This document shows, in pieces, positions 6,699 through 31,015 of a stretch of 64,000 nucleotides of DNA. A program made the translations under genes and the position numbers. A model generated the notes under the pieces. It was not told the origin of the DNA. It saw only the letters and a program-made list of their open reading frames with translations, and did no database searches. Positions within the stretch are counted from its first letter, which is position 1, and each line of letters opens with the position of its first letter. This stretch comes from Acidobacteriota bacterium (GTDB taxonomy: Bacteria > Zixibacteria > MSB-5A5 > GN15 > FEB-12): positions 76,264-140,263 of the forward strand of contig DATKXK010000014.1 of the NCBI GenBank assembly GCA_035529075.1. The letters are read 5' to 3'.

Positions 6699-6980
6699 AA
6701 TATGATAGCAGCGGGGCAACGACTTTACTCCTTCGTGTATCCATCGCCCGGGCAAGTCGATCCTTGCAATGCAAGGTATCTGGTCTTACGAAACGAGTTC
6801 GACAGATCATGAGTGGATTCGTCTGATTGATGTAGAAGGTTGAGCTGGGGGTTCCGCAGCCAGAGGGTAAATCACCGCAACAGCCCGCCTGGAGTACCTG
6901 AGACAGAAAGGCTAGAGTTTTTCAGTCGAGGACTGCCCGTCCGGTCAGGGCGGAAGTTCGTGACCCGAAGGGGGAGTATT

Positions 6981-9065
6981 GTGACAAAGCATTTCGTTAG
7001 CCGAGGGATAGTACGGCCTTTCCTGGGCCTGATCACGGTCATACTGCTTATCGCCGACCCGGCGCGGGCTGAGCCGGACGATCCGGGTGCGCTTCCCGGT
7101 TGCTACTGTGTCGGCATGGTCGGCAACGTCGATTGCGACTACGCGGATATTGTCGATGTCGGTGACCTGACGTTTCTGATTGACTACCTGTTCATCAGTC
7201 ACGCGCGGCTGCCGAACCGGGAGGAGGCCAACACCGACGGGGATCCCGACGGGGTCATTGATATCGGCGACCTGACGGCGCTGATAGATCATCTATTCAT
7301 TACCCATTCCGATCTTCCGCCCTGCCCGGCCCCGCCGAACTGCCCTCCGAGGACGAAAATTCTGTATTTCCCGGTCGGGCCGTATATCGATGCCCCTGCG
7401 CCCGGCTCACCCGTAACGGGGATTCCCATCTCCTGGGAGGCGTTTGATCTGGTCGACCACCCCTACTACCCGCCGCCGTTTGAATGCGAATGGCGCCTGT
7501 ACGGCCCGTACGTTTCCGATACCATTCACGACAGCACCTGGGAGGAACTGACCGACCGATTCATCAAACCTGCTTTCCGGTGCCTCACCGGCGAAGTATA
7601 CCTTTTCGGCGAGGGGGGTGGCATTATCGTCTGCGACAGCGTCCCGGTGCCGATCGGGGACGATTCGGTCGGCTTTGTCATCACGTGCGACACGGTCTTC
7701 GTGGACACCATCACGGGGGCGAATGTGTACGGGTGGCTCGATACGGTTCTCGATGTCGACGATCCGGATTTTGTCGACGATCCGCTCTTTGACCGTGTGG
7801 CCCTGCGGTCGCAGGGGGACGGTCCGGGCGACGTCTGGGTTTTCGACCTGACTGACACGCTGTACGACGTTTACCGTTATGATTCGGACGACACCACCCG
7901 GGAGGAGTATTTCATCTTCTGGGTGCGCGCCCGCGATGTGGTCGACTCCAATCTGTACGACCCCACTCCGGATTTCAAAGCGTGCCGGGTCATCGATCCG
8001 CGTTATGAGCACGACGTCGGCATATTGGACCTTCAGCAGGGGTTTTCTATCAATGCCTGTATCAGAGACAGCGCAAGAGCATTCTGGGATCGCGCCCTCG
8101 ATTCGTGGGCCGGCAGCAGCGGATTGACGATTGACTACGAACCAACTCGCGACTATCGGGTCGTTAATAGTGCTATGGGAATCGGGGTTACGCTTCGTGA
8201 AGTGCTTGCGTACAAGACGGTGGTCTTCGTCGACGACAATGTCCTCCCCGGATGTCTGGCATGGTGGGCGATCAGCGGTGATGTGTTGACCGTCATCGAC
8301 GCCGGTGTCAACGCCTGGATGTGCGGCCGGACGCTAATATACGGTGATGAGGCAGCCCCGCCGCAGTTTGACGTTTTCTCCGCCATACCTCCGAACCTCG
8401 CTGAGGGTTTCAGCTTCTACTTCGGTGTCGAGCAGATGGTCTTCTCAGGGTGGGAATGGCACATCTATTTTGACGCCCGGATGAAGGTGCAGGCGGGCTG
8501 CAGAATTGAGGACTTCATCGGTGCGCACAGCTATGACGAGGAACAGTGGCCCGATCTGACTGTGGACTCGGCGCTGCTTCATCGCCGATATAGGTGGGAG
8601 TACATTTATCCCTGGGTAGACACGCTGGCCGCCATGCCGGAAGTGGACTGGTATCAGCTTGGCGCGGATGTCCAACCGATGTACAGTTATGCCTCCCTGT
8701 ATCCCGGCGGCCACTTCCTCGGGCCTGAGTATACGTTTGAAGGCAGGGACGTGGCGCACCGGTTGAATCGCGGCCTGTTCAGAACCGCATTCTTCATGTT
8801 CACGCCGTTCGCCCTGGAGGAATCAGCCGCGCAGACGGTCATCGACACCGTGCTGTCCTGGCTGTATGATCCGTACCTGGTCACGCCTCCCCTTTCCACG
8901 AGGTATACGGATGCCCCGGTTCCGGTTAATCAGTCACAGGTGCGCGAACGATACTTCCGAAGGTTGGCGGAGCAAGAGAATGACGCGAAGCGAGAACAAT
9001 CATTGGGGCCGCCGGCATCACCCGTAACGAATCCAGCAGACCTGTTTCGGGGGGAAAGCAAATGA
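6981..9065 (+). CDS. Family D secreted protein (D1) with an N-terminal dockerin-like module; function unknown
   Basis: GTG 6981 follows AAGGGGGA and gives the signal peptide VTKHFVSRGIVRPFLGLITVILLIADPARA (the ORF track opens at 6840). It is a paralogue of 61559-63841. Shared strings include FECEWRLYGPY, EYFIFWVR, IRDSARA, FYFG.EQ..SGWEWHI and VAHRLNRGLFRT. Confidence 0.8.
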   Translation: MTKHFVSRGIVRPFLGLITVILLIADPARAEPDDPGALPGCYCVGMVGNVDCDYADIVDVGDLTFLIDYLFISHARLPNREEANTDGDPDGVIDIGDLTALIDHLFITHSDLPPCPAPPNCPPRTKILYFPVGPYIDAPAPGSPVTGIPISWEAFDLVDHPYYPPPFECEWRLYGPYVSDTIHDSTWEELTDRFIKPAFRCLTGEVYLFGEGGGIIVCDSVPVPIGDDSVGFVITCDTVFVDTITGANVYGWLDTVLDVDDPDFVDDPLFDRVALRSQGDGPGDVWVFDLTDTLYDVYRYDSDDTTREEYFIFWVRARDVVDSNLYDPTPDFKACRVIDPRYEHDVGILDLQQGFSINACIRDSARAFWDRALDSWAGSSGLTIDYEPTRDYRVVNSAMGIGVTLREVLAYKTVVFVDDNVLPGCLAWWAISGDVLTVIDAGVNAWMCGRTLIYGDEAAPPQFDVFSAIPPNLAEGFSFYFGVEQMVFSGWEWHIYFDARMKVQAGCRIEDFIGAHSYDEEQWPDLTVDSALLHRRYRWEYIYPWVDTLAAMPEVDWYQLGADVQPMYSYASLYPGGHFLGPEYTFEGRDVAHRLNRGLFRTAFFMFTPFALEESAAQTVIDTVLSWLYDPYLVTPPLSTRYTDAPVPVNQSQVRERYFRRLAEQENDAKREQSLGPPASPVTNPADLFRGESK
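7101..7328 (+). other. Cys-flanked dockerin-like duplicated Ca-loop/helix module within D1
   Basis: CYCVGMVGNVDCDYADIVDVGDLTFLIDYLFISH ... ANTDGDPDGVIDIGDLTALIDHLFITHSDLPPCP. This has two D/N-rich loops, each followed by a DLxxLIDxLF helix. Confidence 0.6.
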
Positions 9066-17518: not shown

Positions 17519-19195
17519 CTACGCCGGTTGAGGCACTCGGACCGCCATGGGGAGGTCGATAGTGACCGTGGTACCTTCGCCCGGAGCCGAGTCGATCGAC
17601 AGTTCGCCGCCGTGGTTCTCGATTATCCGCTGGCAGACAACCAGTCCGAATCCGTGGCCGGTCGGCTTGGTCGTGAAGCGCTGGCTGAACGCCTTCTCCA
17701 GTAGTTCCGGCTCGATCCCGACGCCGTTATCGGAGACCGTGACCCGGAACGATTCCCGCTCAGGATCGGTCATCACGGAAACGGCGATCTGCCCGTCGCC
17801 CTTCTCCTGAGTGGCGTCGGCGGCGTTGTTAAAAACGTTGTACAGCAACTGCTGGATCTGCATGGCATCGGCCTGGAACGGGATTTCGTCGGCCAGCTCT
17901 ATGATGTCGATCTGAACGTCTCGAAACCGCCGCTGAGGCGTCAGGTACTCGATGACTTCCCGGATAACGCGGTCGAAGTACAGGATCTCCTTGCGGGAAG
18001 AGATTGGATGGAGATCCATCAGGTTGGCCGTGAACGTCTTTATCTTCTCGATAGTCTCAGCCGCTGTTTTGACGTGCCGGCTCGCCTCCCGGTGGTCCTG
18101 TTTTTTCAGGTGGACGTCCAGCAGGGAAATGCTGCCCGCAATTACTCCCAGAAAGTTGTTCAGTTCGTGGCCGATCTCCGCCGACATCTGGCCGCGCGTA
18201 GCCATCTTCTCCAACTCGATGGTTTCATCCTGAAGTTCCTTGAGACGGGCGTACGCCTGGCGTGACTGTTCCAGCAGTGACAGGTTTTCCAGCGTGATGG
18301 CCAGCTGGCTGGCGGTGATGGCCAGAAACTGCAGGGTTCGGCCGGAGAGCTTGACGGTGTCGTCCTCGAAACCCAGCATGATCATGCCATAGAACCCGTC
18401 GGCGCGCGTCACCGGGACGACCACCATGTGCAGATTCTCGTGCATCCAGTCAGGGCACAGGTAAGGTTTCAGATTCGGGTCCGGGTTATGCTTGAATACC
18501 GGGTGTTCCTCAAAGCTGGAAATGATGACCGGCTCTCGCAACAGGTCGGATTCGGCTGAATCCAGGCAGGAAGCCAGGGGTTCTTTGGCCAGAGACCGCT
18601 CCTGGGTGGAATCGTCGTTGATCGACACCATGATAAAGCGATCCTGGTCGGGGTCGACGAACAGAATGGAGCCGTGGTCGGCGTGCTGGTGCATCAGCGC
18701 GAACTTCAGCGATGAAACGATCAGCGACTTGCGGTCACCGGCGTGGAAGAGCATGTAGTTCAGATCGGAGAGCCCTTTGAGCTGGTGGTCGGGGCTGCGC
18801 TCTTCGGCTTCGAGCTTCTTCTGGACAGCGCTGTGCACGGCCTGGCGGATCTCCATCAACTCGAACGGCTTCATTATGTAGTCAATGGCCCCCTGCTTGA
18901 TCGCCTCCTTGGCGGAGCTGAGGTTGGCGTAGCCGGTCATGAACAGGACGGCTATGTCGGGCGCCTGCTCCCGGACCCGCCGCACCAGTTCAATGCCGTC
19001 CGTACCGGGCATACGGATGTCGCTGAGTATCAGGTCGAACGGCCCGCCACACATCTGGCGCAGCGCCTCGTCTGCGTTGGACGCCGTGACTACCTCCCAC
19101 CCCTCGTCTTCCAGCGCGTCCGTGACCAGCGAAAGCACGATTTCTTCGTCGTCAACGACGAGAATGCGGAATGTCCGTTCTTGCGACAGACTCAT
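17519..19195 (-). CDS. Hybrid response regulator / histidine kinase (REC - GAF-like - HisKA - HATPase)
   Basis: ILVVDDEE...DLILSDIRMPG receiver domain. H-box AEIGHELNNFL. N/G boxes NAADAT, DNGVGI and GHGFGL. Confidence 0.85.
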   Translation of the reverse strand: MSLSQERTFRILVVDDEEIVLSLVTDALEDEGWEVVTASNADEALRQMCGGPFDLILSDIRMPGTDGIELVRRVREQAPDIAVLFMTGYANLSSAKEAIKQGAIDYIMKPFELMEIRQAVHSAVQKKLEAEERSPDHQLKGLSDLNYMLFHAGDRKSLIVSSLKFALMHQHADHGSILFVDPDQDRFIMVSINDDSTQERSLAKEPLASCLDSAESDLLREPVIISSFEEHPVFKHNPDPNLKPYLCPDWMHENLHMVVVPVTRADGFYGMIMLGFEDDTVKLSGRTLQFLAITASQLAITLENLSLLEQSRQAYARLKELQDETIELEKMATRGQMSAEIGHELNNFLGVIAGSISLLDVHLKKQDHREASRHVKTAAETIEKIKTFTANLMDLHPISSRKEILYFDRVIREVIEYLTPQRRFRDVQIDIIELADEIPFQADAMQIQQLLYNVFNNAADATQEKGDGQIAVSVMTDPERESFRVTVSDNGVGIEPELLEKAFSQRFTTKPTGHGFGLVVCQRIIENHGGELSIDSAPGEGTTVTIDLPMAVRVPQPA

Positions 19196-19560
19196 GTTTT
19201 CCTGACGGGTTTGAGGATCGCGTCCAGAGTTTCCCGCAACTGGTTCAGTTCGAACGGCTTTCTCAGGAGGTGGTGTCGGCCGGTCCGGTGCACCTTCTCC
19301 GAAAGTGAGTCGGGCAGCGAATCAGTGAAAATGAGCCGCAGTTCGGGTTTTTGCGGGGTAATCTCCTTCATGACGTCGTAACCGTGCATCTTCGGCATGT
19401 GCATGTCGCAAATGCAGACGTCGTAATCGTTGCTCAAGGCCATTTGCAGCCCCTCCGGGCCGTCGGCTGATACATCTACCTCGTGGCCGAGTTCAGTGAG
19501 AAAATCCGTCAGCAGGTTTCTCATCACCAGCGAATCGTCAATTATCAGTATTCTTGCCAT
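19192..19560 (-). CDS. Receiver-only response regulator
   Basis: ILIIDDS, CICDMHMP and LLRKPF motifs. Overlaps the downstream gene by 4 nt. Confidence 0.85.
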   Translation of the reverse strand: MARILIIDDSLVMRNLLTDFLTELGHEVDVSADGPEGLQMALSNDYDVCICDMHMPKMHGYDVMKEITPQKPELRLIFTDSLPDSLSEKVHRTGRHHLLRKPFELNQLRETLDAILKPVRKT

Positions 19561-19573
19561 CGCTCCACCGTTT

Positions 19574-19939
19574 CTAGGCCAGGGCAGTTGTCACCGTCTG
19601 GATCAGTTCCTTGATGCTGAACGGCTTGGACAAAAACGCGCACGCACCGCTGGCAACCGATCGGCTGACCGTGTAGAGACTGGAATAGCCCGAGATCACG
19701 ATCACCCGTGTACTCGGGTCGATCTCCTGTGCTGCCTTGACCACTTCTTCTCCGGGGACTCGCGGCATGCGCAGGTCGGTGATCACCAGGTCGAAACGGC
19801 GCTGCCTCAACCTGGCTATAGCCTCATCACCGTCGCAGGCCAGTGTAACCTCGTAATCTTCCAGTACTTCCGACAGGAAATCGCGGATGATCTCCTCGTC
19901 ATCGACTACGAGTATTGAGTGCCTGTTTTCCGTACTCAT
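19574..19939 (-). CDS. Receiver-only response regulator
   Basis: ILVVDDEE, DLVITDLRMP and FLSKPF motifs. Confidence 0.85.
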   Translation of the reverse strand: MSTENRHSILVVDDEEIIRDFLSEVLEDYEVTLACDGDEAIARLRQRRFDLVITDLRMPRVPGEEVVKAAQEIDPSTRVIVISGYSSLYTVSRSVASGACAFLSKPFSIKELIQTVTTALA

Positions 19940-19951
19940 GCAGGTACCCGG

Positions 19952-21625
19952 CTAACCCCTCAGACTGGTTTCGCTTTCCCTTACTGTATCGGACGAGCGG
20001 GGCGATCTCTGTACCGGCAGAACAACCGTAAAGGTCGTGCCTTCACTCACCTCGGACTTGACGAGAATTTCGCCCCCATGGTCGCGGATTATACCGTAGC
20101 TGACCGAAAGGCCCAGCCCGGTGCCTTTGCCCACCTCCTTGGTCGTAAAGAAAGGTTCAAAGATTTTCTTGAGATTCTCTGCTGATACGCCATGTCCGTG
20201 GTCGATAAAGAGCAGCTCGACGGCGCCGCCGAACTCTCCGACCGCGGGAGAATATCGGCTGACGATCTCGATGGCGGTTCCCTTTTCGGAGGCGTGCATG
20301 GCGTTGATTATGAGATTGGTGAACACTTGCTGAAGCTGCCCGATGTTTCCCTGAATTGTCGGAATGCCCGGCGTCAGCGACACGATCAGTTCAACCTGGT
20401 TGATGCGCAGTTGATGTTCAACGAAGCTGATCGTTTCCTCGATCGCCCTGTTCACCTCGATTTCCTCGAAATCGACCGTCCGCGAGGATCGCGAGAACTT
20501 CAGCAGGTTCTGCACGATGGTCTTGCAGCGCCGCGCCTGGGCCTCGATATCGGAGACGTATTTCACGTAGCTGGCGATATCTTTGGTCGTCGTCTTTTCC
20601 GGGACGTTCTTGGACAGTTTCTCGAGGGTGAACTGGGCGTACCCGAGAATCCCGCCCAGGGGGTTGTTCAACTCGTGAGCCACTCCGGCGGCCAGCTGAC
20701 CGATAGCGCCCATCTTCTCGGATTGAATGAGTTGCGCCTGCGCCTCCTCGAGCTGCCTGGTCCGTTCAATGATCTTCTCTTCCAGCGTCCGATTGTACTG
20801 CTCGATCTCGTCTCGTGACTGTTTGAGAGACTCAATCATCTTGTTGAACGTCTTGGCCAGGTGACCGATCTCGTCGTTACGGTTGATTTCCACCTTCCGA
20901 CTCAGGTCCCCGTGGCTTATCTGATCGGTGACCTTCACCAGTTCCGTGACCGGATTGGTGATGGCACTTACGATGAAGGTGACCAGGATGATGCTGGTCA
21001 GGACGATGAGCAGGGCCAGCACAATGACGACGATGCGCCCTTCGGCGATTGACCGGTTGACGCTTTCTTCCGACAGACCGAGCGCGATGTAGCCGATCAG
21101 CTCCGGCTCGTACGAGTAGGGGATGGACTTGTCCAGTCCGCTCGTGATGCCGAGATTCTCGCGGCTGATCCTCTCGCGCTGGGTCAGCACGGGCGCTGTC
21201 AGAATGAGAATCCCCTGCCCGGAGGAATCCGTGACGTACGATTTGGCCGTCTCGACCTGCTGGTCGCCGGCAAGGTCCCGGACCTTCCATACCGTCGGAC
21301 TGATGGCACAATTACCGGTCCGGGATAACACGTCCCCGGCAAGATTGATGACGATGGCGAACTCGACCGTCTCGAACGGCGCCAGCACTTGCAGGAGGTC
21401 CTCCAACTCGTGGGTGGACTCAAACAGGACACCGCTTTCAGCGTTCATGGCCAGCATCTGTATCATCGTTTTGCCGCTGGTTTCCAGCTCGCGCCGGAAG
21501 CCGTCATCCTGGCGCTTAAGCAGGTAACCACTGGTGATGAGCATGCTGACGACCACCATCGCCGAAATCGGCAGGACGAACCTCGTCCGCAGGTTGACCT
21601 GAATCAGGCGACCAAAGAGGCTCAT
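19952..21625 (-). CDS. Membrane sensor histidine kinase (2 TM, periplasmic domain, HAMP, HisKA, HATPase)
   Basis: HAMP segment NPVTELVKVTDQISHGDLSRKVEI..EIGHLAKTFNKMI. H-box GVAHELNNPLGGI. G-boxes DHGHGV and GTGLGLS. Confidence 0.85.
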   Translation of the reverse strand: MSLFGRLIQVNLRTRFVLPISAMVVVSMLITSGYLLKRQDDGFRRELETSGKTMIQMLAMNAESGVLFESTHELEDLLQVLAPFETVEFAIVINLAGDVLSRTGNCAISPTVWKVRDLAGDQQVETAKSYVTDSSGQGILILTAPVLTQRERISRENLGITSGLDKSIPYSYEPELIGYIALGLSEESVNRSIAEGRIVVIVLALLIVLTSIILVTFIVSAITNPVTELVKVTDQISHGDLSRKVEINRNDEIGHLAKTFNKMIESLKQSRDEIEQYNRTLEEKIIERTRQLEEAQAQLIQSEKMGAIGQLAAGVAHELNNPLGGILGYAQFTLEKLSKNVPEKTTTKDIASYVKYVSDIEAQARRCKTIVQNLLKFSRSSRTVDFEEIEVNRAIEETISFVEHQLRINQVELIVSLTPGIPTIQGNIGQLQQVFTNLIINAMHASEKGTAIEIVSRYSPAVGEFGGAVELLFIDHGHGVSAENLKKIFEPFFTTKEVGKGTGLGLSVSYGIIRDHGGEILVKSEVSEGTTFTVVLPVQRSPRSSDTVRESETSLRG

Positions 21626-22635
21626 CGGTATACCTCCTTGGCGATCGCAATCATGTCGTCCGGGATAGTAACGCTGATATGGCGGGCCGTCTTCTCGTTG
21701 TAGTGAAACCAGATAATGTCGGGCGAAGTGATGCTGATTCCACCCGGGTTCGTTCCCTCAAGTATCCGATTGACAGTCTTCCCGGCCTGTCGGCCGACCG
21801 CTTTGTAGTCAAAATCGAGTGCAAACAGAGCCCCGGATTCGACCACGTAGCGGGAAAAACCCATGAAGGGGACTCCCCGGCGGATCGTATGCAGCAGGAT
21901 GAATTTCGTCGATTGCGGACTGAACAGGTTCGGATCGGCCACGGACCAGATTCCGTCGCAAACCCCGGTCAGGGAATCCAGCGCCCGCGGCAGTTCCTTC
22001 TGGTCGTTCACCTCCAGCGCCACAAGGTCCAGCCCCAGTTGCTGTGCCACCACCTTCGACGGCGGGATGAGCTTGGCCGTGTTGCTCGAATAGAGCACGC
22101 CGATGGTTCGGAGCTTGGGAATGATCTTCCGGAAATTCCGAAACTGGATGTTCACCGGGATATTCAGAGAGGCGCCGGTTATGTTGTGACCGGGGTTCAC
22201 GAGCGATTCCACGAAACCCGAGACGACCGGGTACATGACGGCGGAAAACACGATCGGTGTCCGGGTAAAATTATCCTTGGCGCATTCCGTGGCGCCGCTT
22301 CCGACCGTTAGAATGATGGCCGGCCTGGCGGCTTTGACGGAGTCGATCTGGCGGCTGCACTGGGCCGAATCCGGGGATATAAGGTACTGTATAAAAACAG
22401 CTTCGGGGTGTTGACTCTGGACAACTTTGATGGCCCCGCTGATGGTTCGCAGGGTTGATATCAGGCTGTCCGTGGTCAGAACCGCGACTTTCTGTGCCCG
22501 CGCCTCCCGGGCGTGGCCGACGACCAGCACGGCAAGACACAGTAGTCCCACAAGAGTTCTTTTGGTCCAGTTGCTAGCCAATGAGGGGCACCATAAAATA
22601 GGTAACCAGATCCCTTTTGCGCCGGCCCTTGTCAC
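21622..22635 (-). CDS. Periplasmic ABC-type substrate-binding protein (ABC_sub_bind-like) with no transporter partners nearby
   Basis: KVAVL..., TPIVFSAVMYPVVSGFVESLVNPGHNITG, IGVLYSSN and GVPFMGFSRYVVESGALFAL are colinear with that family as I recall it. There is a 4-nt overlap with the kinase gene. Confidence 0.7.
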   Translation of the reverse strand: MTRAGAKGIWLPILWCPSLASNWTKRTLVGLLCLAVLVVGHAREARAQKVAVLTTDSLISTLRTISGAIKVVQSQHPEAVFIQYLISPDSAQCSRQIDSVKAARPAIILTVGSGATECAKDNFTRTPIVFSAVMYPVVSGFVESLVNPGHNITGASLNIPVNIQFRNFRKIIPKLRTIGVLYSSNTAKLIPPSKVVAQQLGLDLVALEVNDQKELPRALDSLTGVCDGIWSVADPNLFSPQSTKFILLHTIRRGVPFMGFSRYVVESGALFALDFDYKAVGRQAGKTVNRILEGTNPGGISITSPDIIWFHYNEKTARHISVTIPDDMIAIAKEVYR

Positions 22636-22896: not shown

Positions 22897-25554
22897 TTGA
22901 AAAGACGGTTGTCAAACTTCCTTCCCGCAACCCTGACACTTCTGCTGGTGATCGCGGCAGGACCGGTGCAAGCCGGTGTGACCGGCAAAGTCTCGGGTGC
23001 GGTGGAGGACGGAAACACAGGGGCGCCGGTAATCGGAGCGACGGTTCGCGTTGCGGGCACCAGCCTGGCCACCAAGACTGACGAGGACGGAGAGTACTTC
23101 ATTATCAACGTCCCGGTGGGTAAGTACGACCTGGTCGCCACCCACGTCGGTTTTGAAACGGTCACCCGGAAGGAAGTACGAATACTCGTCGATCTAACAA
23201 CTCCGGTCGACTTCAATCTCGACCAAATAGCGGTCGAGTTGGGGGAGGCGGTGGTCGTGTACGCGTCCGAGCCGATTATTCGGCGGGACCTGACGGCGTC
23301 GCGCAGCATTTTCACGGCTGATCGGTTGAAGAACCTGCCCAATATCGTCACCGTTCAGACCGTGTTGACCAACTACCCGGGAGTGGTGGTCGACCGCGGC
23401 GAAGAACTGCACGTGCGCGGCGGGCGGTCCGGTCAGATTTCATACTACTTCGACGGGTTCTCGGTACAGGATCCGTTCGTGAACAAAGCCGGCATTCGGA
23501 TTATGCCGACCGCTCTCGAGGAGCTTTCGCTGACTTCCGGCGGGTTCACCGCTGAGTACGGCGAGGCCCTTTCGGGCGTGGTTAACGCGGTTACGCGAGA
23601 GGGAGGCCATGCCTACCGCGGCGGCCTGCGGTCCTACGAGGGCTTCACGCACACGTACTCCGTCGGCGACGCCGACTGGGGCCAAATGGACCGGCACGGC
23701 AACCGGTCGCTCAGCTTCGACGTCTCCGGGCCGGTGCCGGGACTTGACGGCAAACGATATTCTTTCTTCGCCGCCGGCGAGTACCTGGACAAGCGGACAC
23801 ACCTTCCCCATGACCGGGAGGCAAGCTACACGACGGCGGCCAAGCTGTCGTTGCAGCCGACGCCCAGGTTGAAACTAAAGTCGAACGTGACGTTCTTCGA
23901 CTCCAATGGCGACCTGTACACGCATCGAGACGTCAACGGGCGGTCGTATGACTTCAACCTTGACGGTTTGCCGTCATTCGAAAAGCGAGCCTACCTGGCC
24001 GGCGTGTCCGGAAACTACCATTTCAACGAACGTACCATCCTGTCGGCCGCGTTCAACCGGTTTTCGACGCGCACGCTCACGGCGCCGGGACACCTGATGG
24101 ACGTTCACTGGAGCCGGTGGCCGGGCTATTCAGAGGATGCGGACGGCACCTACGACGGGACCATCCACGAGGACAACTACGGTAACAACCCGGACAACTC
24201 CGATCCCTATGAGATATTCGGCTTTACCACCGGCGATGACTTCGAACCGACCTACTCGTTTCGCGAGACGAAGTACAGTTCGTTGAGCGGCAGCCTGGTC
24301 AAGCAGGTCGACAAGAACAACCAGGTCAAGGCGGGATTCGAATACCGCCAGTATGACATCGCCAAGGACTTCCGGCAGTTCTATAATACCAAGCCCTACT
24401 ACGAGACGTACGAGGCCAACCCGTTGTACGCGTCGTGCTTCCTCCAGGACAAGATTGAGTACGCCGCCTTCGTCGTCAATGTCGGGCTCCGTTACGACTA
24501 TCGTGACGCCGACATCGAGTACAACTCCACACCGGAGGACACGGTGGCGCACTACAAGGACGCCGATCCCAAGTCCAGGTGGTCGCCGCGCCTGGGCGTC
24601 TCGTTCCCCGTCTCGACGAAGACGGTGATGCACTTCAACTACGGAGTGTACTACCAGATGCCGACCTTCAGGTTTCTGTACTTCAACCCCGAAGGCGACA
24701 TCTCCTCCGGCCTGCCGCTGTTGGGCAATCCGGACCTGGCTCCCGAGCAGACCGCCTCCTATGAACTGGGTCTCGATCACCTGATCGGCGACGACATCCG
24801 CCTGGACGCCACGGCATACTACAAGGACATAAAGGACCTGGTGTCGGCCCGGTCGTTCAGGGTCAGTACGATCACCGTGACGCGGTTCACCAACGACGAT
24901 TACGGCTCAGTCAAGGGATTTGACGTTTCTCTGGAGAAGCTGCCCGGCGACGCCCACTGGAGCGGGTCCGTTTCGTACGGTTATATGCTGGCCAGCGGCA
25001 ACGGGTCCAATGCCCTGGAGCCGTACTACAACCTGAACACCTCGGACACTATCCTGCCGGTCACCGAGTACCCGCTTGACTTCGACCAGCGGCACACGGT
25101 CACGGCCATGGCGGACTGGCACGTCCCACCGCAGTGGAGCGGCAACCTGTTCGGGTTGAAATTGCCGGGTGCCTGGGGTTTCTCCATGGTTGGCTACTAC
25201 GGCTCCGGTCTGCCTTACACCAAGACCGATGCCGACGGCAACCGGTTCGGAGAACGCAACGAAGGCCGGCTGCCCGCCTACTACAGTGTCGATATGCGCT
25301 TTAACAAGGACTTCCGGACGGGCGCCAGCCAGATCCTGACCTTCTTTGTTGAGGTAGATAACGTCTTCAACCGGCGCAACGTGATCGACGTTTTCAGCCG
25401 CACCGGTCTTCCTGACAACGACGCCGTGTCTGTCTCCGGCAGCCTGGCGACCAATCAGGAGGAGATCGATGAGGCCAACCGGTTGTATGATCACGACCCA
25501 CAGCATTATTCCCCGCCGCGGACTATCAGAACGGGGTTTGAGCTAAGCTTTTGA
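22897..25554 (+). CDS. Family A outer-membrane protein (A1): CarboxypepD_reg-like domain + plug + TonB-dependent-receptor-like barrel
   Basis: TTG start after GGAGAGGAAG. Signal peptide present. GKVSGAVEDGNTGAPVIGATVRV...DGEYFIINVPVGKYDL, plug motif LHVRGGRSGQISYYFDGFSVQDP, and C-terminal GFELSF. Confidence 0.8.
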   Translation: MKRRLSNFLPATLTLLLVIAAGPVQAGVTGKVSGAVEDGNTGAPVIGATVRVAGTSLATKTDEDGEYFIINVPVGKYDLVATHVGFETVTRKEVRILVDLTTPVDFNLDQIAVELGEAVVVYASEPIIRRDLTASRSIFTADRLKNLPNIVTVQTVLTNYPGVVVDRGEELHVRGGRSGQISYYFDGFSVQDPFVNKAGIRIMPTALEELSLTSGGFTAEYGEALSGVVNAVTREGGHAYRGGLRSYEGFTHTYSVGDADWGQMDRHGNRSLSFDVSGPVPGLDGKRYSFFAAGEYLDKRTHLPHDREASYTTAAKLSLQPTPRLKLKSNVTFFDSNGDLYTHRDVNGRSYDFNLDGLPSFEKRAYLAGVSGNYHFNERTILSAAFNRFSTRTLTAPGHLMDVHWSRWPGYSEDADGTYDGTIHEDNYGNNPDNSDPYEIFGFTTGDDFEPTYSFRETKYSSLSGSLVKQVDKNNQVKAGFEYRQYDIAKDFRQFYNTKPYYETYEANPLYASCFLQDKIEYAAFVVNVGLRYDYRDADIEYNSTPEDTVAHYKDADPKSRWSPRLGVSFPVSTKTVMHFNYGVYYQMPTFRFLYFNPEGDISSGLPLLGNPDLAPEQTASYELGLDHLIGDDIRLDATAYYKDIKDLVSARSFRVSTITVTRFTNDDYGSVKGFDVSLEKLPGDAHWSGSVSYGYMLASGNGSNALEPYYNLNTSDTILPVTEYPLDFDQRHTVTAMADWHVPPQWSGNLFGLKLPGAWGFSMVGYYGSGLPYTKTDADGNRFGERNEGRLPAYYSVDMRFNKDFRTGASQILTFFVEVDNVFNRRNVIDVFSRTGLPDNDAVSVSGSLATNQEEIDEANRLYDHDPQHYSPPRTIRTGFELSF

Positions 25555-25566
25555 CGGAGCGGAAGT

Positions 25567-28299
25567 ATGAAAAGGAGCATGATGACATATTTGGTGGCGC
25601 TCGGGCTGGTGGTGGCAGTCCTGTTGCAGGCCGCGCCGGTGAGCGCCAAGCCGATCTCGGCCAGGCCCCCGCGGGTCGACACCGGCAGTACCGGAGGTAC
25701 CGGAGGACTGGCTCTCTTCCCCTCGCCCCTGACGATCGACCAGATCATTCACGACCGCGGTAACATCCTTACCACAGTCGACAACTGGGGGTACATCGGC
25801 GGGAGCCAATACTACGGACTGCCTTCGGGCGAGTGGCCGCGCAATTCCGGGCACGACTACATCGGTGAAATCAAGTACTGGATGGGGGCCGTTGACGCCG
25901 GCGGCGACACTCTGGTCGCTAACACCTACGATGACTTTCAGGGTCTTCCGTCGCTGATCTCGAGCGTTCCGCAGCAGAAGATTCTGCTGTCGACCGACAC
26001 GACGCGCTATTACGACTACAACCTGGAGGACACCACCGGGCTGGGCAACGGCAACCCGGCCCACGGGTGGCGCGTGTGGAACGCCGACTCCGCGGCCTGG
26101 GTCTGCACCCAGAACTACAATCCGCGCGACATGATCTTCTTCCCCGGGGGACCCGTTTCACTGCAGGAGTCGCACTATCGCTTCAATGACGCGTCCGGCG
26201 GTTCCTCGCTGATGGGCCTCGAGATGACCCACACCGTCTTGCAGTGGAACTACTGCTACAACGAGGATTTCGTTTTCGTGATCCTCGACATTGCGAACAC
26301 CTCGGCGATCGACTACACCGACTTTGCTTTCGGACTCTACGTCGATCTTGACGTCGGCGGTCCCGACGGTACGGGCGAGAACGGACGCCTCCATGACCTG
26401 GTGGCCTACGACTCGGCCGCCAACCTCGCCTGGACCTACGACTACGACAGCTATGATGAAGGCTGGCAAACCGAGACCGGCATCATGGGCACGAAATATC
26501 TCGAGACGCCGGACGACATCGGTATGACCGGTTTCAGAACCGGCGACTGGGGCCTGGTGCCGGAGACCGATGAAGGTCGTTTCCGCTTTCTTGACTCGGC
26601 CGGTTTTGACCCGCAACTGCCGCCTACCGATCAGTACTATATCCAGTGCACTCGCGGTATCTCGCTGGAGGCCGGCAAGACCGTTCGGGTCGTGTACGCG
26701 CTGGTGGCCGGTGAGGACAGTCTCGAGTTCCGGGACAACGCGGAGCTTGCCCAGCAGTTATATGACAACTACTTCGTCGGTCCCGAACCGCCGCCAACGC
26801 CGACACTGACCGTCGAGGCCAGTGACCAGAAGGTCTACCTGAAATGGGACGACACGGCGGAATTCGGCACCGACCCGCTGTCGGGCGAAAACGATTTCCG
26901 AGGCTACAAACTCTACCGCAGCGACAACCAGGGGAGAACCTGGGGCGAAGTGGTCGAGGACCTCGATAACAACTGCCTGGCGGTCGACTATGAGGCCATC
27001 GGCGACTACTGGGTCAGCACCCCCGGCGATCCGATTCAGCACAGCTACATCGACACCGACCTGTTCAACGGCATTGAATACTGGTATACGCTCGTGGCCT
27101 ATGACACCGGGGCTATTGACCTGGGCGTTGACTGGCTGCAATCCGGGTTCGGTGTCGCCGGCGGAGTGCCCAACGTGGTGGCCGTCACGCCGCGCGACGA
27201 CCCGGCCGGGTTCTACGAGGCCGCCGGTACGGTGGCACACGAATACTCCGGGGTCGTTTCGCCGTCGGCAGGCAACGTTATCCCGACCGTATTCGACCGG
27301 AATGCCCTGCTGGGAGCCGACTACAGGGTCGTGTTTGAGGATACTCCTGCACGTACTTACTGGCATCTGATCAACGTGACCACGGGAGACACCGTCCTGG
27401 CCAATCAGACCCGCTCTGAGGGTGACCCCGGCCTGTACGAGGTTGCCGAGGGTCTGCGAGTGGTCGTCCGCGACGCCGACCGGGTCCCGTTGAACATGGA
27501 ACAGACGGAGTTGGGCGGCGCCGAGGCAACCCTGGTGGCCGACCCGGGAGCATTCTACGGGGTGGTCATTGAGTACTTCTACGGCGTGTATTTCGGCTGC
27601 GAGCACTACCGGTCCACGTATGAATTCCGGTACACCGGTAACTCGACGGTGGCCAGCGCGTTCAACGACACGCTCGGCCAGGGTACGGCCTGGTCGGTGC
27701 CGTTTGAGGTCTGGAACACCACCACTGACCAGCGCGTGTCGCTGGTCGTGTACGATTTCGGGCTCGACGGTGCCTGGGATCCCCGGGACCTGCTGATTGT
27801 CGTAAACTATCCGTACGACCCAATGGAGGATCCGTTCGTCACCGCCTGGCCGTACTATTTCAACTGGATGTTCGGCTTCGACACTACCGTCTACAATCCG
27901 GCCGTCGGAGACGTGTTCACAATCGAGGGTAGTCCGCTGAACAGCCCCGCCGACGCTTTTACCTTCAAGGTTGACGGCATCAGCGTTGCGACGGCCAAAG
28001 CCTCCCTGAACGACATCAGGGTTGTGCCGGATCCGTACCTTGTGCACAACTGGTCCAAGATTGAGCTTTCGGGCGCGGAGCCCGTTCTGGAGTTCCAGAA
28101 TATCCCGGACAAGTGCACCATCCGGATTTACTCGTTGTCCGGAGACCTCATCAAGACCATAGAGCATGAAGGTGTTTCCGGCACGGCGCGCTGGGATCTG
28201 CTTTCGCAGGACCGGCAGCAGGTCGCGTCGGGGATTTACATCTATCACCTGGACTCGCCGTATGGCGAGCATTTGGGACGGTTCGCCGTCATCAAGTAA
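25567..28299 (+). CDS. Family B secreted protein (B2) with an FN3-like middle region and a T9SS-type C-terminal sorting-domain-like tail
   Basis: Signal peptide MTYLVALGLVVAVLLQAAPVSA. Paralogue of B1 (see 9062-11464). Starts 12 nt after A1. Confidence 0.8.
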   Translation: MKRSMMTYLVALGLVVAVLLQAAPVSAKPISARPPRVDTGSTGGTGGLALFPSPLTIDQIIHDRGNILTTVDNWGYIGGSQYYGLPSGEWPRNSGHDYIGEIKYWMGAVDAGGDTLVANTYDDFQGLPSLISSVPQQKILLSTDTTRYYDYNLEDTTGLGNGNPAHGWRVWNADSAAWVCTQNYNPRDMIFFPGGPVSLQESHYRFNDASGGSSLMGLEMTHTVLQWNYCYNEDFVFVILDIANTSAIDYTDFAFGLYVDLDVGGPDGTGENGRLHDLVAYDSAANLAWTYDYDSYDEGWQTETGIMGTKYLETPDDIGMTGFRTGDWGLVPETDEGRFRFLDSAGFDPQLPPTDQYYIQCTRGISLEAGKTVRVVYALVAGEDSLEFRDNAELAQQLYDNYFVGPEPPPTPTLTVEASDQKVYLKWDDTAEFGTDPLSGENDFRGYKLYRSDNQGRTWGEVVEDLDNNCLAVDYEAIGDYWVSTPGDPIQHSYIDTDLFNGIEYWYTLVAYDTGAIDLGVDWLQSGFGVAGGVPNVVAVTPRDDPAGFYEAAGTVAHEYSGVVSPSAGNVIPTVFDRNALLGADYRVVFEDTPARTYWHLINVTTGDTVLANQTRSEGDPGLYEVAEGLRVVVRDADRVPLNMEQTELGGAEATLVADPGAFYGVVIEYFYGVYFGCEHYRSTYEFRYTGNSTVASAFNDTLGQGTAWSVPFEVWNTTTDQRVSLVVYDFGLDGAWDPRDLLIVVNYPYDPMEDPFVTAWPYYFNWMFGFDTTVYNPAVGDVFTIEGSPLNSPADAFTFKVDGISVATAKASLNDIRVVPDPYLVHNWSKIELSGAEPVLEFQNIPDKCTIRIYSLSGDLIKTIEHEGVSGTARWDLLSQDRQQVASGIYIYHLDSPYGEHLGRFAVIK
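28015..28296 (+). other. T9SS C-terminal-domain-like (FlgD-Ig-like) tail of B2
   Basis: IRVVPDPY....LEFQNIPDKCTIRIYSLSGDLIKTIEH....ARWDLLSQDRQQVASGIYIYHLDSPYGEHLGRFAVIK. It follows the V-PNP ... I-IYD-G ... W-G ... SGVY pattern of Por secretion tails. Confidence 0.55.
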
Positions 28300-28312
28300 A
28301 GGAGGCTGGAGC

Positions 28313-29305
28313 GTGAAAAAAATAGTCGTTTTTCTGCTGGTGTTCGCCCTGGTGGGGACAGCCTCCGCTGAACAGTCGAAGGTTGGTTCCGCCGGAGCGC
28401 AGTTTCTCAAGATCGGTGTCGGCTCCCGGTACCAGGCGATGGGGGAGGCCTCGGTGGCTTGTGCCAACGACGTGTACGCGATGTACTGGAACCCGGCCGG
28501 CCTGGCTGAGATTGAAAACGCCGCCGTCAGCTTTACCAACGTCAACTGGATCCTCGACGTCGACCTGAACTATGTGGCCATCGCCAAGAACTTCGAGGAC
28601 GTCGGTGTCTTCGGCGCCTCGGCGACGGTGCTGTCGATGGACGAACAGGAGGTCACGCGGGCGGATATGCCCGAGGGTACGGGGGAGCGCTACGACGCCG
28701 GTTCCTATGCCATCGGAGTCTCTTTCGCGCGTCACCTGACCAACAAGTTCGCCTTCGGCGCCTCCTTCAAGTACGTCGGCGAAAAGATCTACCTGGAGGA
28801 ATCGAGAGGCTTCGCCTTTGACTTCGGAACCCTTCTGTACACGGGCTTCCGCTCGCTGCGTCTGGGCATGAGCATCTCCAACATGGGACCGGAACTGCAG
28901 TTTTCCGGGCCCGACGTGCGCTACGACGAACTGCTGGGTGACGGTGCCAACGATCCGTTTGACGCTCAACTGAAGACAACGCCTTACGACTTGCCCCTCG
29001 TGTTTCGGGTCGGTGTTGCCTACGACCTCGAGATGGCTCAGAACTCCGTTCTGACCGTCTCGGCCGAGATGAAGCACCCTAACGACAACAATCAGCAGGG
29101 CGGCATCGGCGCGGAGTACGGTTTCGCCGAGAAGTTCTTCCTGCGCGGCGGCTACAAGCTGAACTACGAGGAGGAAACACTCTCCTTCGGCGGCGGCTTG
29201 CGAACCTCGGTCGGCTCGGATGCTTCGCTCGTAATCGACTATTCCTGGCAGGACTTCGGGCGGCTGAATTCCGCGCAGCGGTTTTCCGTCGGCTTTGCCT
29301 TCTAA
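28313..29305 (+). CDS. Family C PorV/PorQ-like outer-membrane barrel (C1)
   Basis: GTG 28313 follows AAAGGAGG and gives the signal peptide VKKIVVFLLVFALVGTASA. GSAGAQFLKIGVGSRYQAMGEASVACANDVYAMYWNPAGLA resembles the PorV-family N-terminus. The C-terminus ends in FSVGFAF. Confidence 0.7.
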   Translation: MKKIVVFLLVFALVGTASAEQSKVGSAGAQFLKIGVGSRYQAMGEASVACANDVYAMYWNPAGLAEIENAAVSFTNVNWILDVDLNYVAIAKNFEDVGVFGASATVLSMDEQEVTRADMPEGTGERYDAGSYAIGVSFARHLTNKFAFGASFKYVGEKIYLEESRGFAFDFGTLLYTGFRSLRLGMSISNMGPELQFSGPDVRYDELLGDGANDPFDAQLKTTPYDLPLVFRVGVAYDLEMAQNSVLTVSAEMKHPNDNNQQGGIGAEYGFAEKFFLRGGYKLNYEEETLSFGGGLRTSVGSDASLVIDYSWQDFGRLNSAQRFSVGFAF

Positions 29306-29325
29306 CGGATTCGGCCAGATTGCAA

Positions 29326-29355
29326 AGGCCCCGGCAGGATCGGGGCCTTTTTTTA
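29326..29355 (+). terminator. Intrinsic terminator closing locus 2
   Basis: AGGCCCCG-GCAGGAT-CGGGGCCT followed by TTTTTTT. Confidence 0.8.
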
Positions 29356-29431: not shown

Positions 29432-31015
29432 ATGATGAAGTCACTTCTACGCTCCGCGATATATCTCGCCCTCGGCATCGTGACGGCGCTTTCGGCATCC
29501 GCCCGCAGCAATCTTTCGCTGACCGTTATTGTCGACTATTTTGACGTGCTGTCCTCGGGGAACTTCGAGACCGCGCGTCTCATGTGGACACCCGAGGCAC
29601 AGGAGCGCGCGGGCCGCTTCGACATCGAGTACACGGGGATCCCGCTGAAAATCGACTGCGTGTCTCCCATTGTTCAGGATCTCGCGGTCATGACCAACTA
29701 TATGATGCCGGCGGCCAAAAACGTGGAGAGTCTGCCCGGCGACCGCTACTTCAGGCTTCACTACTCGCAGGTCATCGATGACCAACTGGTGGAACATTTC
29801 TACTACACCAGAGCCGACGGCGACTGGCAGTGGTTCTGCTACCCGCAGGATTACTATGCCGAGGACTGGCCGATTGTCCAGTCGCGATACTTCCGTGTCC
29901 ACGTCCATCCGGACAGGCAGGAGTTCATTCACCAGGCTGTCCTCGAGGAAGCCGACCGTCTGGTGGAGGGCCTGGCCGGAACGCTGCATCTTTCGGGGGA
30001 CGATCTCAGGCGGATCGAGGACAAAAAGATAGAGTTCTTTTACTGTTCATCCGACCAGGGAGTGGCGACGATAACCGGCCAGGCCACGCGCGGCGTGCTC
30101 GACAAGGCCTCCAACGATATCATCTCCGCCAGCTTCCCGCACCTGCATGAACTCGTTCACCTGCTCGTAAACATCAAACTGCAGCGGTTGCCGTTGTATA
30201 CGCTGCCCGTCGTCGCCGAGGGAGTGGCCGTGGCATACGGAGGCCGGTGGGGAAAGAATGCAGAGGCACTCATGGACCTGGGCGTCTTTCTGCACCGGGA
30301 AAAACTGATCGAACTGGATTCCATCCTCACGTTGCAGGGCTTTCAAGCGCACACCGGTGCCGACATTGCCTACCCGATGGTGGGTGTGTTCGCGTTCTTC
30401 CTTATCGACAGGATGGGACAGGACAACTTTCTTGACCTCTACCTGGCGCTTTCCGGAGATTTCAAGACTCTCTCGGCACTGACCACCGAACAGGTTCAGG
30501 AGACAATTGCCGGCGCTGCGGGGGTCGGCGACTGGGAGGAACTGAAAGCGGAATTCGAGCGCTACATCGATCAAAACCTGATCACCCGGGCGGCCGCCCT
30601 GCCCGGAAGAGTCGCCCGCGGCCGCGGTGTCGTCAGCGGCGAGCGGTTCAGCGTCGACCGGAACGGTGAATGGTTCGGGTGCGTCTTTGCTGGAGCCGGG
30701 GAAGAGCCGGTGAAGGGCAGCCTGCTTTTCAGCCATGATAAGCGGCTGGACGGGAAGCCGTCGGTTCTGTTTACGGAGCAATTTGACGATCGCCGTCCTT
30801 TTGAAGGTTACCGGTACGCCGTACGTTTCGATGAGAACGAAGCCGGGCTGTACGACTACGCCACCAACAGACTTCTGGCCAAGTACATCTGGGGAATATC
30901 CCCGTCAGAGGAGTACTTTGACCGCGAGTCCCGCACCATTGCCGTAAAATTCCGGAGGGACCTCGTGGACGGCCGGATGCCGGCCCGGGGGGACTGCGTG
31001 TTGCTGCCGGAATAG
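29432..31015 (+). CDS. Secreted protein with a peptidase-MA-like (gluzincin) motif
   Basis: Signal peptide MMKSLLRSAIYLALGIVTALSASA. HELVH (HExxH) is followed about 20 residues later by AEGVAVAYGG (E-G-x-A-x-Y). Confidence 0.55.
   Translation: MMKSLLRSAIYLALGIVTALSASARSNLSLTVIVDYFDVLSSGNFETARLMWTPEAQERAGRFDIEYTGIPLKIDCVSPIVQDLAVMTNYMMPAAKNVESLPGDRYFRLHYSQVIDDQLVEHFYYTRADGDWQWFCYPQDYYAEDWPIVQSRYFRVHVHPDRQEFIHQAVLEEADRLVEGLAGTLHLSGDDLRRIEDKKIEFFYCSSDQGVATITGQATRGVLDKASNDIISASFPHLHELVHLLVNIKLQRLPLYTLPVVAEGVAVAYGGRWGKNAEALMDLGVFLHREKLIELDSILTLQGFQAHTGADIAYPMVGVFAFFLIDRMGQDNFLDLYLALSGDFKTLSALTTEQVQETIAGAAGVGDWEELKAEFERYIDQNLITRAAALPGRVARGRGVVSGERFSVDRNGEWFGCVFAGAGEEPVKGSLLFSHDKRLDGKPSVLFTEQFDDRRPFEGYRYAVRFDENEAGLYDYATNRLLAKYIWGISPSEEYFDRESRTIAVKFRRDLVDGRMPARGDCVLLPE

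Follow-up and report, generated by a model that had tools for sequence, protein, structure and literature searches.

In the SusCD and RagAB utilisomes, a TonB-dependent transporter (TBDT), SusC or RagA, is assembled with a surface lipoprotein, SusD or RagB. In the T9SS (type IX secretion system) attachment complex, PorZ is paired with PorQ and PorU with PorV, and C-terminal domains are retained on these PorV-family barrels (PMC12704123); porU and porV are adjacent genes (PG0026/PG0027, Fjoh_1556/1555; PMC5445135). BamG, a FadL-type 14-strand barrel, lies packed against BamA and holds the lipoprotein BamH at the surface, the paralogous pair bamG2-bamH2 forming an operon (PMC12578637). In addition, PorF (PG0534), which resembles TonB-dependent receptors (TBDRs) and whose partners are unknown, is needed for T9SS function in Porphyromonas gingivalis (PMC5445135, PMC12704123), and the TBDT Oar is required for secretion of the PopC protease in Myxococcus xanthus (PMC6434023). 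Here, we describe a gene cassette found in a stretch of 64,000 nucleotides (nt), hereafter the window, from a genome of the Zixibacteria deposited as Acidobacteriota bacterium (GenBank assembly GCA_035529075.1, contig DATKXK010000014.1, positions 76,264 to 140,263 of the forward strand). The cassette is made of four protein families, named A to D, and is spread over three loci.

A proteins are TBDT-type barrels, C proteins are barrels of the PorV/PorQ family, B proteins are large secreted proteins most of which end with a T9SS-type C-terminal domain, and D2 is a predicted lipoprotein. Our preferred reading, for which we see an even chance, is that A forms the core and C the platform of a utilisome-like uptake complex on which B and the lipoprotein D are docked. 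Equally balanced, in our judgement, is the view that the three loci of the window are parts of one outer-membrane system of the Zixibacteria and of neighbouring candidate phyla of the Fibrobacterota–Chlorobiota–Bacteroidota (FCB) group.

Results

Organization of the cassette loci

The eight genes of the cassette are carried by the forward strand, and all were found in the open reading frame (ORF) listing where the first-pass annotation had placed them. Locus 2 contains A1 (22897–25554, 885 amino acids (aa)), B2 (25567–28299, 910 aa) and C1 (28313–29305). Locus 3 contains A2 (57144–60515, 1123 aa), C2 (60540–61544, where an ATG at 60561 may be the true start) and D2 (61559–63841, 760 aa). Locus 1 is limited to D1 (6981–9065, with a GTG start at 6981 within the ORF 6840–9065) and B1 (9062–11464).

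The genes of each locus had been described as tightly spaced or overlapping. Indeed, 12 nt separate A1 from B2, 24 nt A2 from C2 and 14 nt C2 from D2, while D1 and B1 overlap by 4 nt. However, the overlap between B2 and C1 is an artefact of the longest ORF (28166–29305). The most likely start of C1 is the GTG at 28313, located 13 nt past the B2 stop codon, preceded by AGGAGG 7 nt upstream and followed by a signal peptide. A strong intrinsic terminator (29324–29350, forward strand; 11-bp stem with seven GC pairs, then TTTTT) lies 19 nt 3′ of C1. Hence, A1-B2-C1 is a three-gene operon.

The paralogy within each family, first read by eye, was recovered with BLASTP. A1 and A2 are about 30% identical in two blocks (E 4e-53 and 6e-36), C1 and C2 are 35% identical (E 2e-63), and D1 and D2 share 50% identity over 545 aa (E 3e-176). 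The direct match of B1 to B2 is weak, albeit significant (25% identity over 281 aa, E 3e-7). B2 matches a B1-type protein from another phylum-level lineage with an E value of 5e-32, and since such intermediates link B2 to B1-type proteins, homology of the two is secured.

The TonB-type barrels and the PorV/PorQ-type barrels

As proposed by the first-pass annotation, A1 and A2 are TBDR-type barrels. Both exceed the Pfam gathering scores for CarboxypepD_reg (57–64 bits versus 32), for the plug (PF07715; 38.7 bits for A1 and 44.6 for A2 versus 23.9) and for the TonB-type barrel (PF00593; 102.4 and 85.0 bits versus 27). In A1, the CarboxypepD_reg extension (aa 30–110) is followed by a candidate TonB box, GEAVVVYA (aa 116–123), the plug and the barrel. 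A2 has the same layout, the candidate TonB box being DETITVKG (aa 118–125); in both proteins, this motif sits between the N-terminal extension and the plug. Across 37 A2 orthologues, conservation of the plug motifs RGGR and DG.P..DP is 90% or higher.

Membership of the SusC/RagA subfamily, with a SusD partner, was considered and rejected. On TIGR04056 the two proteins reach 66.6 bits (A1) and 47.4 bits (A2) for a cutoff of 368, the match being confined to the N-terminal extension and the plug, and no SusD/RagB-like lipoprotein gene is adjacent. More broadly, no SusD-family Pfam match was found among the neighbours in the window and in the related loci examined. In agreement with what had first been read from the window, Pfam scans of its ~38 other ORFs revealed no SusD-like, PorK/L/M/N or SprA gene; TonB_C genes are also absent from it.

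A2 differs from A1 by an insertion of ~220 aa (58494–59150, forward strand; aa 451–669) carrying about eight Ca-binding-type loops, Dx(N/D)GNGxYD, which are kept in the 37 orthologues. From its sequence, this insertion would be an extracellular loop domain. More speculatively, other proteins could dock on it outside the cell, the dockerin-like modules described below being one possibility.

C1 and C2 pass the NCBIfam model of the PorV/PorQ family (NF033709; 214.6 and 190.4 bits, respectively, cutoff 90) and the Pfam PorV model (41.4 and 33.0 bits, gathering score 27), which bears out their first assignment as PorV-like. Nevertheless, they are not PorV, PorQ or PorV2 proper, because both stay far under the three equivalog cutoffs. 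C1 reaches 83.9 of 250 bits for PorV (NF033710), 75.9 of 220 for PorQ (NF033711) and 65.5 of 325 for PorV2 (NF052325); the corresponding values for C2 are 59.8, 95.6 and 48.0 bits. BamG was rejected as well (NF053685; 17.8 bits for C1 versus 250, no match for C2). The sole match of C2 among PDB sequences is PorV of Flavobacterium johnsoniae (6h3i_F, E 9e-6). In a full-library search with C2, the PorV/PorQ family amounts to 11,681 clusters at E ≤ 1e-3. The closest non-orthologous relatives of C2 belong to other Zixibacteria lineages and to two metagenome-assembled genomes (MAGs), one labelled Cloacimonetes 4572_55 and the other Fermentibacteria.

In most loci where both families occur, C directly follows a B gene. 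This is the case in the window and in L051–L055, L057, L060–L062, L067, L074, L084 and L137–L139 (L-numbers designate loci from relatives, metagenomes included; relatives were read with flanks of at most 10 kb). In addition, phmmer scores show that B and C types co-vary, B1-type proteins going with C2-type barrels and B2-type proteins with C1-type barrels.

B proteins and their C-terminal domain

Searches of Pfam, NCBIfam and PDB sequences matched B and D to no enzyme or other family apart from the B tail, an outcome that leaves the first-pass reading unrefuted. Their folds, then given as unknown, can now be proposed from AlphaFold2 models compared with Foldseek: both are built of binding-type β-sandwiches, to which D adds an uncharacterised α/β domain. 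B2, which has a signal peptide, is modelled as an all-β protein with a predicted local distance difference test score (pLDDT) of 83. Its N-terminal part (aa ~61–405, ~350 aa) is a supersandwich of the galactose-mutarotase type, resembling the non-catalytic N-terminal domains of GH94, GH116 and GH149 enzymes as well as mutarotases (Foldseek probability 1.0). It is followed by fibronectin type III (FN3)/β-sandwich domains and a terminal immunoglobulin (Ig)-like domain. Overall, B is predicted to be a β-supersandwich and FN3 protein devoid of a catalytic domain.

The terminal domain carries the best overall Foldseek match of B2, PorZ (5m11). It corresponds to a C-terminal domain (28015–28296, forward strand) reading IRVVPDPY ... 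CTIRIYSLSGDLI ... SGIYIYHL ... GRFAVIK, whose best NCBIfam matches are the C-terminal domains of PorZ (E 2e-6) and PorU (E 1.6e-4). PorZ and PorU tails are the best matches for three of the four B tails searched in isolation (E 7e-8 to 2e-6). Of the four, the second matches the type A tail model TIGR04183 first, and the fourth matches neither PorZ nor PorU significantly. On TIGR04183 (cutoff 23), the tails gave 18.2, 25.8 and 20.5 bits and, for the fourth, no match at E ≤ 1. On PF18962, three of the four reached 15–19 bits versus 27. B was also considered as PorZ itself and rejected: on the PorZ model NF052228, B2 gives 23.1 bits for a cutoff of 260, through its tail only, and the AlphaFold2 model consists of β-sandwiches without a propeller.

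The B tails form a subtype of their own, with PNPY, an insert of 15–20 aa, RRIxFxNLPxxCTIRIYTLDGDLV ... WDLISRNTQ ... SGIYLYxVES ... GKFVIIK. A search pattern for this tail matched 103 of 124 complete metagenome B ORFs; 12 of the 21 others were viewed and have the same tail, the pattern being too strict. The tails of S8 and M6 proteases encoded nearby are unlike those of B and have the canonical form NYPNPFN ... KKMxLLK. Since B carries a T9SS-type C-terminal domain, type IX-style sorting is implied and not absent, a correction to the first-pass annotation.

B2 has 396 homologues. The 119 closest beyond its own cluster are 55–73% identical and come from Zixibacteria, and one orthologue is named "T9SS type A sorting domain-containing protein" by NCBI. 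The B family is large and expanded. Of the 78 metagenome B loci, about 65 lack A and C within 6 kb and hold either a lone B gene or a tandem array of two to four of them. Genes often seen next to the arrays encode an MFS transporter and the M16, S8 and TldD peptidases. The proposal that B always pairs with C was consequently rejected.

B1 stands apart by its C-terminus. It matches the B proteins of the A-B-C-B-C-D operons described below with phmmer E values of 1e-155 to 1e-162. On these scores, B1 is an orthologue of those proteins, its tail having apparently been exchanged for a dockerin-like module.

In two of these operons, L055 and L057, the two B copies have near-identical tails and different N-terminal regions. 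In L055 (6426–12536), the tails differ by one residue; in L057 (2828–8972), the last ~65 aa are identical, and both C copies score identically. Because the tails are near-identical while the N-terminal regions diverge, recent duplication or gene conversion is suggested, which would keep the B tail and the C barrel matched.

Possible relation to type IX secretion or to TonB-energised export

The nature of the B tails and C barrels raises the question of whether the cassette is itself T9SS secretion or attachment machinery. C1 and C2 would then be PorV/PorQ, B2 a PorZ/PorU-like protein and A the counterpart of PorF. We regard this as unlikely. It would account for the small advantage of PorV over PorQ in the scores of C1 and for the opposite order in C2, and for PorZ and PorU tails being the best matches of the B tails. 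It would also account for the succession B2-C1, which mirrors the porU-porV adjacency of Bacteroidota (PMC5445135). PorF provides a precedent for a TBDR-like protein in this system, with which A shares only the general class of plug-containing TBDRs. A2, C2 and B2 are universal and conserved like housekeeping proteins, as machine components would be, and canonical T9SS cargo proteases are encoded just 3′ of D2 in ~30 genomes. However, C1 and C2 fail the three equivalog cutoffs by far, and B has neither the β-propellers of PorZ nor a C25 peptidase domain. Moreover, B is expanded into tandem arrays, unlike a single machine subunit, and C is tandemly duplicated along with B in the A-B-C-B-C-D operons. 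The periplasmic-ligand sensor cluster that diverges from A1 is of a kind typical of uptake loci. Finally, to our knowledge, porF, porQ and porZ have not been reported as one operon in Bacteroidota.

The TBDT Oar is long and begins with a CarboxypepD_reg domain, and the layout of A, with this domain, a plug and a long barrel, recalls Oar-type proteins. A and C could constitute an export or display route of their own for B, and possibly D, energised by TonB and operating without the SprA translocon. The position of B genes between A and C would suit such a route, as would the faint matches of A orthologues to OMP_b-brl_3 and OMP_b-brl_4 and a B tail subtype distinct from canonical cargo tails. 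No T9SS core gene (SprA, PorK/L/M/N) and no PorU or PorZ gene was found in the window or in any locus examined, but this negative covers only ~60 kb per genome, and canonical type IX tails on the nearby proteases imply a conventional T9SS. Besides, most B genes have no A gene nearby. TBDTs are plugged 22-strand barrels, too narrow for large folded proteins, here a multidomain protein of 900 aa. Despite the Oar precedent for a TBDT in protein secretion (PMC6434023), we consider export through A and C very improbable.

The D proteins and the dockerin-like module

D2 is predicted to be a lipoprotein. Its lipobox is LYVPG-C29, Cys29 being invariant in an alignment of 23 sequences and at least 90% conserved in one of 86, and the segment beside the lipid anchor is conserved. 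The AlphaFold2 model of D2 (pLDDT 91, predicted template modelling score 0.84) shows Ig/FN3-like sandwiches (aa ~44–420), an α/β three-layer domain (aa ~425–711) and C-terminal helices. A Foldseek search with the whole model returned only generic FN3/Ig tandem matches (TM-score ≤ 0.2), none of them informative. The 95 homologues of D2 are all unnamed proteins, and their named source organisms are all Zixibacteria or candidate division GN15.

D1, in contrast to D2, is a secreted protein and not a lipoprotein, with a signal peptide cleaved at ARA-EP. The first Ig-like region of D2 is missing in D1, where an N-terminal dockerin-like module takes its place. This duplicated Ca-binding module (7101–7328, forward strand; GDLTFLIDYLF ... 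DGDPDGVIDIGDLTALIDHLF) was located by a motif scan. In B1, a similar module at the C-terminus (11237–11461, forward strand) replaces the T9SS-type tail. Assignment to type I dockerins was rejected, as PF00404 stays under its gathering score (18.3 bits for B1 versus 22.9; E 0.2 for one D-family member); the duplicated F-hand-like motif is visible by eye.

The consensus of the module, GNVDCD ... DxGDLTxLIDYLFIS ... DGDPDGVVDIxDLTxLIDYLF, is flanked by Cys pairs. The module also occurs at the C-terminus of unrelated FG-GAP/VCBS-type proteins of other Zixibacteria; outside the window, it lies at L002:256–1404 (reverse strand), L016:1471–3969 and L051:16716–17807. Judging from these sequences, the whole phylum seems to use it as another means of anchoring or assembly. 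No cohesin partner was identified for it.

Conservation and gene order in other genomes

A scan with one genome per species retrieved A2-C2-D2 in the same order and on one strand in 47 of 50 loci; two of the remaining three are cut by contig ends, and one (L049) is a D1-B1 pair like locus 1. The median identity to orthologues is 60% for A2, 67% for C2 and 37.5% for D2, compared with 46% and 62% for the LplA-like protein and the σ54 activator encoded upstream. Thus, A2 and C2, which match cytoplasmic neighbours in identity, are unusually constrained for outer-membrane barrels. Such near-housekeeping conservation suggests that what they do is central to how the phylum lives.

The arrangement of locus 2 is conserved as well. 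In five of five other genomes examined, an A1-like TBDT of 886–902 aa precedes a B2 orthologue, a PorV-family barrel and a 522–533-aa orthologue of gene E (see below), with the sensor cluster in divergent orientation.

The first-pass annotation had expected the four families to co-localise in other genomes, and in some of them, from several deeper lineages, they form a single operon. Complete A-B-C-B-C-D operons were found in L055, in L057 and on three metagenome contigs, in addition to several partial ones. The operons of L055 and L057 occupy the syntenic position of locus 3 of the window, upstream of a PMT_2 glycosyltransferase gene and of an S8 protease gene with a type IX tail. The upstream flank, read in L055 only, contains the σ54 activator and the LplA-like gene. 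Elsewhere, L053, from the Cloacimonetes 4572_55-labelled MAG, has two TonB_C genes followed by A (1051 aa), B (838 aa) and C, and L054, from the Fermentibacteria MAG, has A, B (703 aa) and C. Because full operons recur, including at the locus-3 position, the ancestral unit would be A-B-C(-B-C)-D and the loci of the window would be rearranged derivatives of it.

This recurrence bears on another explanation, in which there is no dedicated complex. Ordinary TonB-dependent receptors would merely lie beside FadL/PorV-type channels, their repeated association reflecting paralogy and general synteny. Conserved synteny does extend to unrelated genes, namely those for CorC, the σ54 activator and the LplA-like protein upstream of A2, and those for RmuC and a pyridine-nucleotide oxidoreductase 3′ of E; moreover, barrels of the FadL family can work on their own as channels for hydrophobic molecules. 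Yet the same set of families recurs in three differently arranged operons of one genome, and again, with other flanks, in the MAGs labelled Fermentibacteria and Cloacimonetes. Since the cassette recurs in different arrangements and phyla, coincidental adjacency is contradicted. The 12–24-nt spacing or 4-nt overlap, the single terminator after C1 and the co-variation of B and C types also speak for a functional unit, leaving this explanation with little probability.

Two side observations concern the related genomes. In L003, L013, L042 and L047, the A2 or D2 orthologue is split into two to four ORFs, which are probably assembly frameshift errors and not real pseudogenes. The Zixibacteria-type operon, with its synteny, is also present in many binchicken MAGs titled "uncultured Ignavibacteriales bacterium" (L004, L006, L012, L018–L020 and others). 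One record of a locus bears the title Calditrichota and another Candidatus Acidoferrum. All of these names seem to be placeholders or misassignments.

Regulation and neighbouring genes

A sensor cluster (17519–22635, reverse strand) is divergent from A1 in six of six genomes, the window and five others. It encodes a PF04392 periplasmic binding protein, which matches PDB entries 3lkv and 3lft, a HAMP histidine kinase, response regulators and a GAF hybrid kinase. PF04392 proteins are described as binding aromatic amino acids. This cluster is a candidate regulator of A1-B2-C1. In relatives, two receiver genes of 120–132 aa lie between the kinases; the corresponding stretch of the window is 19195–19952.

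Gene E (29432–31015, forward strand) encodes a secreted protein of 527 aa with an HELVH motif and a weak match to Peptidase_MA_2 (E 0.002, under the cutoff). E follows C1 in the five other genomes; lying behind the terminator with its own promoter-like site, it is a linked neighbour outside the A1-B2-C1 operon.

A σ70-type promoter (56870–56899, forward strand; TTGACT-N18-TATTTT, preceded by an A tract) is located upstream of A2. In 33 genomes, it is the only intergenic block that is at least 80% conserved, the rest of the ~250-nt leader not being conserved. A σ54 activator with tetratricopeptide repeats (TPR) is encoded two genes upstream (53018–55954). A σ54 promoter for A2 was nevertheless rejected: neither the A1 nor the A2 leader contains a match with two or fewer mismatches, and the conserved element is of the σ70 type. 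No riboswitch was found upstream of A1 or A2, as an Rfam search of the window gave only two tRNAs and the signal recognition particle (SRP) RNA. The LplA-like gene upstream of A2 was rejected as a functional partner, its position being put down to general synteny.

The window ends at 64000, before the region downstream of D2. In ~30 related loci (for instance L008:12361–20608), this region contains a PMT_2/TPR GT-C glycosyltransferase gene on the minus strand, the S8 and M6 protease genes, fur and feoB. The tails of the two proteases score 29.9 and 28.7 bits on Por_Secre_tail (gathering score 27). Such canonical tails imply a conventional T9SS in the genomes concerned. In the Fermentibacteria locus L054, too, A-B-C is followed by a GT-C gene, of the TMEM260/PMT-like kind; the cassette may be connected with glycosylation on the periplasmic side.

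The remainder of the window is ordinary chromosome, with genes for FtsW, GAPDH, PGK, TIM, RNR, AspRS, DnaX, RecR, the SRP RNA and tRNAs. An ORF of 552 aa adjoining ftsW (519–2177) contains two retropepsin-like Asp_protease_2 domains and gives a weak match to DUF620.

Discussion

In the reading that we prefer, we infer the following arrangement from gene families, gene order and predicted folds. A, a TBDT, would be the import channel. C, a 14-strand barrel of PorV/PorQ type made together with A, would serve as a platform holding surface proteins next to the transporter. B would be exported, presumably by a type IX-style route, and kept at the surface by its family-specific C-terminal domain, which by analogy with PorZ and PorU tails on PorQ and PorV would bind C non-covalently. 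D, which would be exposed at the surface as a lipoprotein, may complete the assembly as SusD, RagB, BtuG and BamH do in theirs. B and D would capture a macromolecular substrate, and A would import its products.

Uptake, possibly of protein-derived substrates, is favoured by the sensor cluster and by the peptidases that recur near cassette families: S8 and M6 beside D2 in ~30 genomes, the MA-like protein after C1, and M16, S8 and TldD beside the B arrays. Because peptidase neighbours recur, a proteinaceous substrate would be favoured; the supersandwich fold of B would also allow a glycan.

In the lineage of the window, the ancestral unit may have been split in three. A1-B2-C1 would represent a complete operon with transporter, tail-bearing protein and platform. 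A2-C2-D2 would have lost its B genes, and a B1-type gene would have moved beside a D paralogue. In B1 and D1, the dockerin-like module would then stand where a type IX tail or lipid anchor would otherwise be.

Several observations weigh against this uptake complex. The TonB boxes are candidate motifs of only partial conservation, and just one of the four B tails passes the type A tail model TIGR04183. Most B loci are B-only, so that B can exist without the cassette. There are far more B genes than C genes; therefore C, if it binds tails, must serve many B proteins. A2-C2-D2 has no tail-bearing partner, which means that C may have a role other than tail binding. A2 and C2 occur once per genome with near-housekeeping conservation, as would be expected of a core envelope machine more than of a transporter for a particular nutrient. 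Finally, the LplA-like gene, the σ54 activator and the protease neighbours may reflect the synteny of the phylum and not function.

A more far-reaching idea, which we put forward as doubtful, is that B tails and C barrels constitute a third, hitherto unrecognised type IX-style class of cargo and carrier, next to type A with PorV and type B with PorP/SprF, and wired to a TonB-dependent barrel. In one form, the B proteins of the arrays would be interchangeable and would plug into an invariant A-C core energised by TonB. In a more extreme form, A-C would itself be a TonB-powered translocon or insertase, independent of SprA.

The first-pass annotation did not recognise the combination as a described system, and full-text literature searches likewise gave no description of the cassette. 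They returned no paper linking Zixibacteria with the T9SS or type IX secretion, none linking them with PorV among the 15 top-ranked results, nothing relevant on a secretion system or the outer membrane of Zixibacteria, and "PorV-like" only in papers on the BAM complex and in one T9SS review. A single T9SS paper came up for "PorV2", through "PorV" printed before reference number 23. Whereas each class of component is known, the operon combining a TBDT, a PorV/PorQ-type barrel, a tail-bearing B protein and a D lipoprotein appears undescribed. The same appears true of the B and D families, of the B-type tail subtype and of the conservation of the cassette across the phylum.

If the uptake complex is real, it would open a first functional approach to the cell surface in Zixibacteria and in related FCB phyla, uncultured groups that are often found in sediments, aquifers and digesters. 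The idea of FadL/PorV-type platforms, as in PorV/PorQ and BamG, would extend to TBDTs, and a new subtype of C-terminal sorting domain would be defined along with a candidate cognate barrel. Utilisome-like machines would also be possible without SusD.

Among described systems, Oar resembles A in its layout, by which, and not by sequence, the two are likened, and Oar is linked to a secreted protein and not to a small nutrient. For Oar, neither a PorV-type barrel nor a type IX tail nor a lipoprotein partner has been described. The association of PorP/SprF barrels with type B C-terminal-domain cargo, as in sprB-sprF of Flavobacterium, likewise joins a distinct tail to an adjoining gene for a cognate barrel (PMC12704123). 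Compared by description, it differs in the barrel family, PorP/SprF instead of PorV/PorQ, in the type of tail and in having no TBDT.

The PorQ-PorZ and PorV-PorU pairs are closer. They share with the cassette the family of the barrel, the similarity of the tail and a gene order in which B precedes C as porU precedes porV. However, C fails the equivalog models, B has no β-propellers or sortase domain and belongs to a large paralogous family, and the B-C pair lies inside a TBDT operon. C is also found with a lipoprotein and no tail-bearing partner, in A2-C2-D2.

Unlike in the SusCD and RagAB utilisomes, A fails the SusC/RagA model, no SusD-like gene of TPR fold is present and D consists of Ig-like and α/β domains. 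In addition, the operon contains a second integral barrel, C, and B would be anchored by a type IX-style tail and not by a lipid. On the other hand, A resembles SusC and RagA in being a TBDT extended at its N-terminus by CarboxypepD_reg. Its gene would share a transcript with those of surface proteins, including the lipoprotein D, and a periplasmic sensor system lies alongside. The peptidase neighbours recall the peptide importer RagAB.

In BamG-BamH, the partner barrel is BamA, of the Omp85 family, whereas A is of TBDT type; the BamG model gives C1 no more than 17.8 bits, and D is unrelated to BamH. Nevertheless, this pair offers a direct precedent for the arrangement proposed here, in which C would contact A and hold D (PMC12578637).

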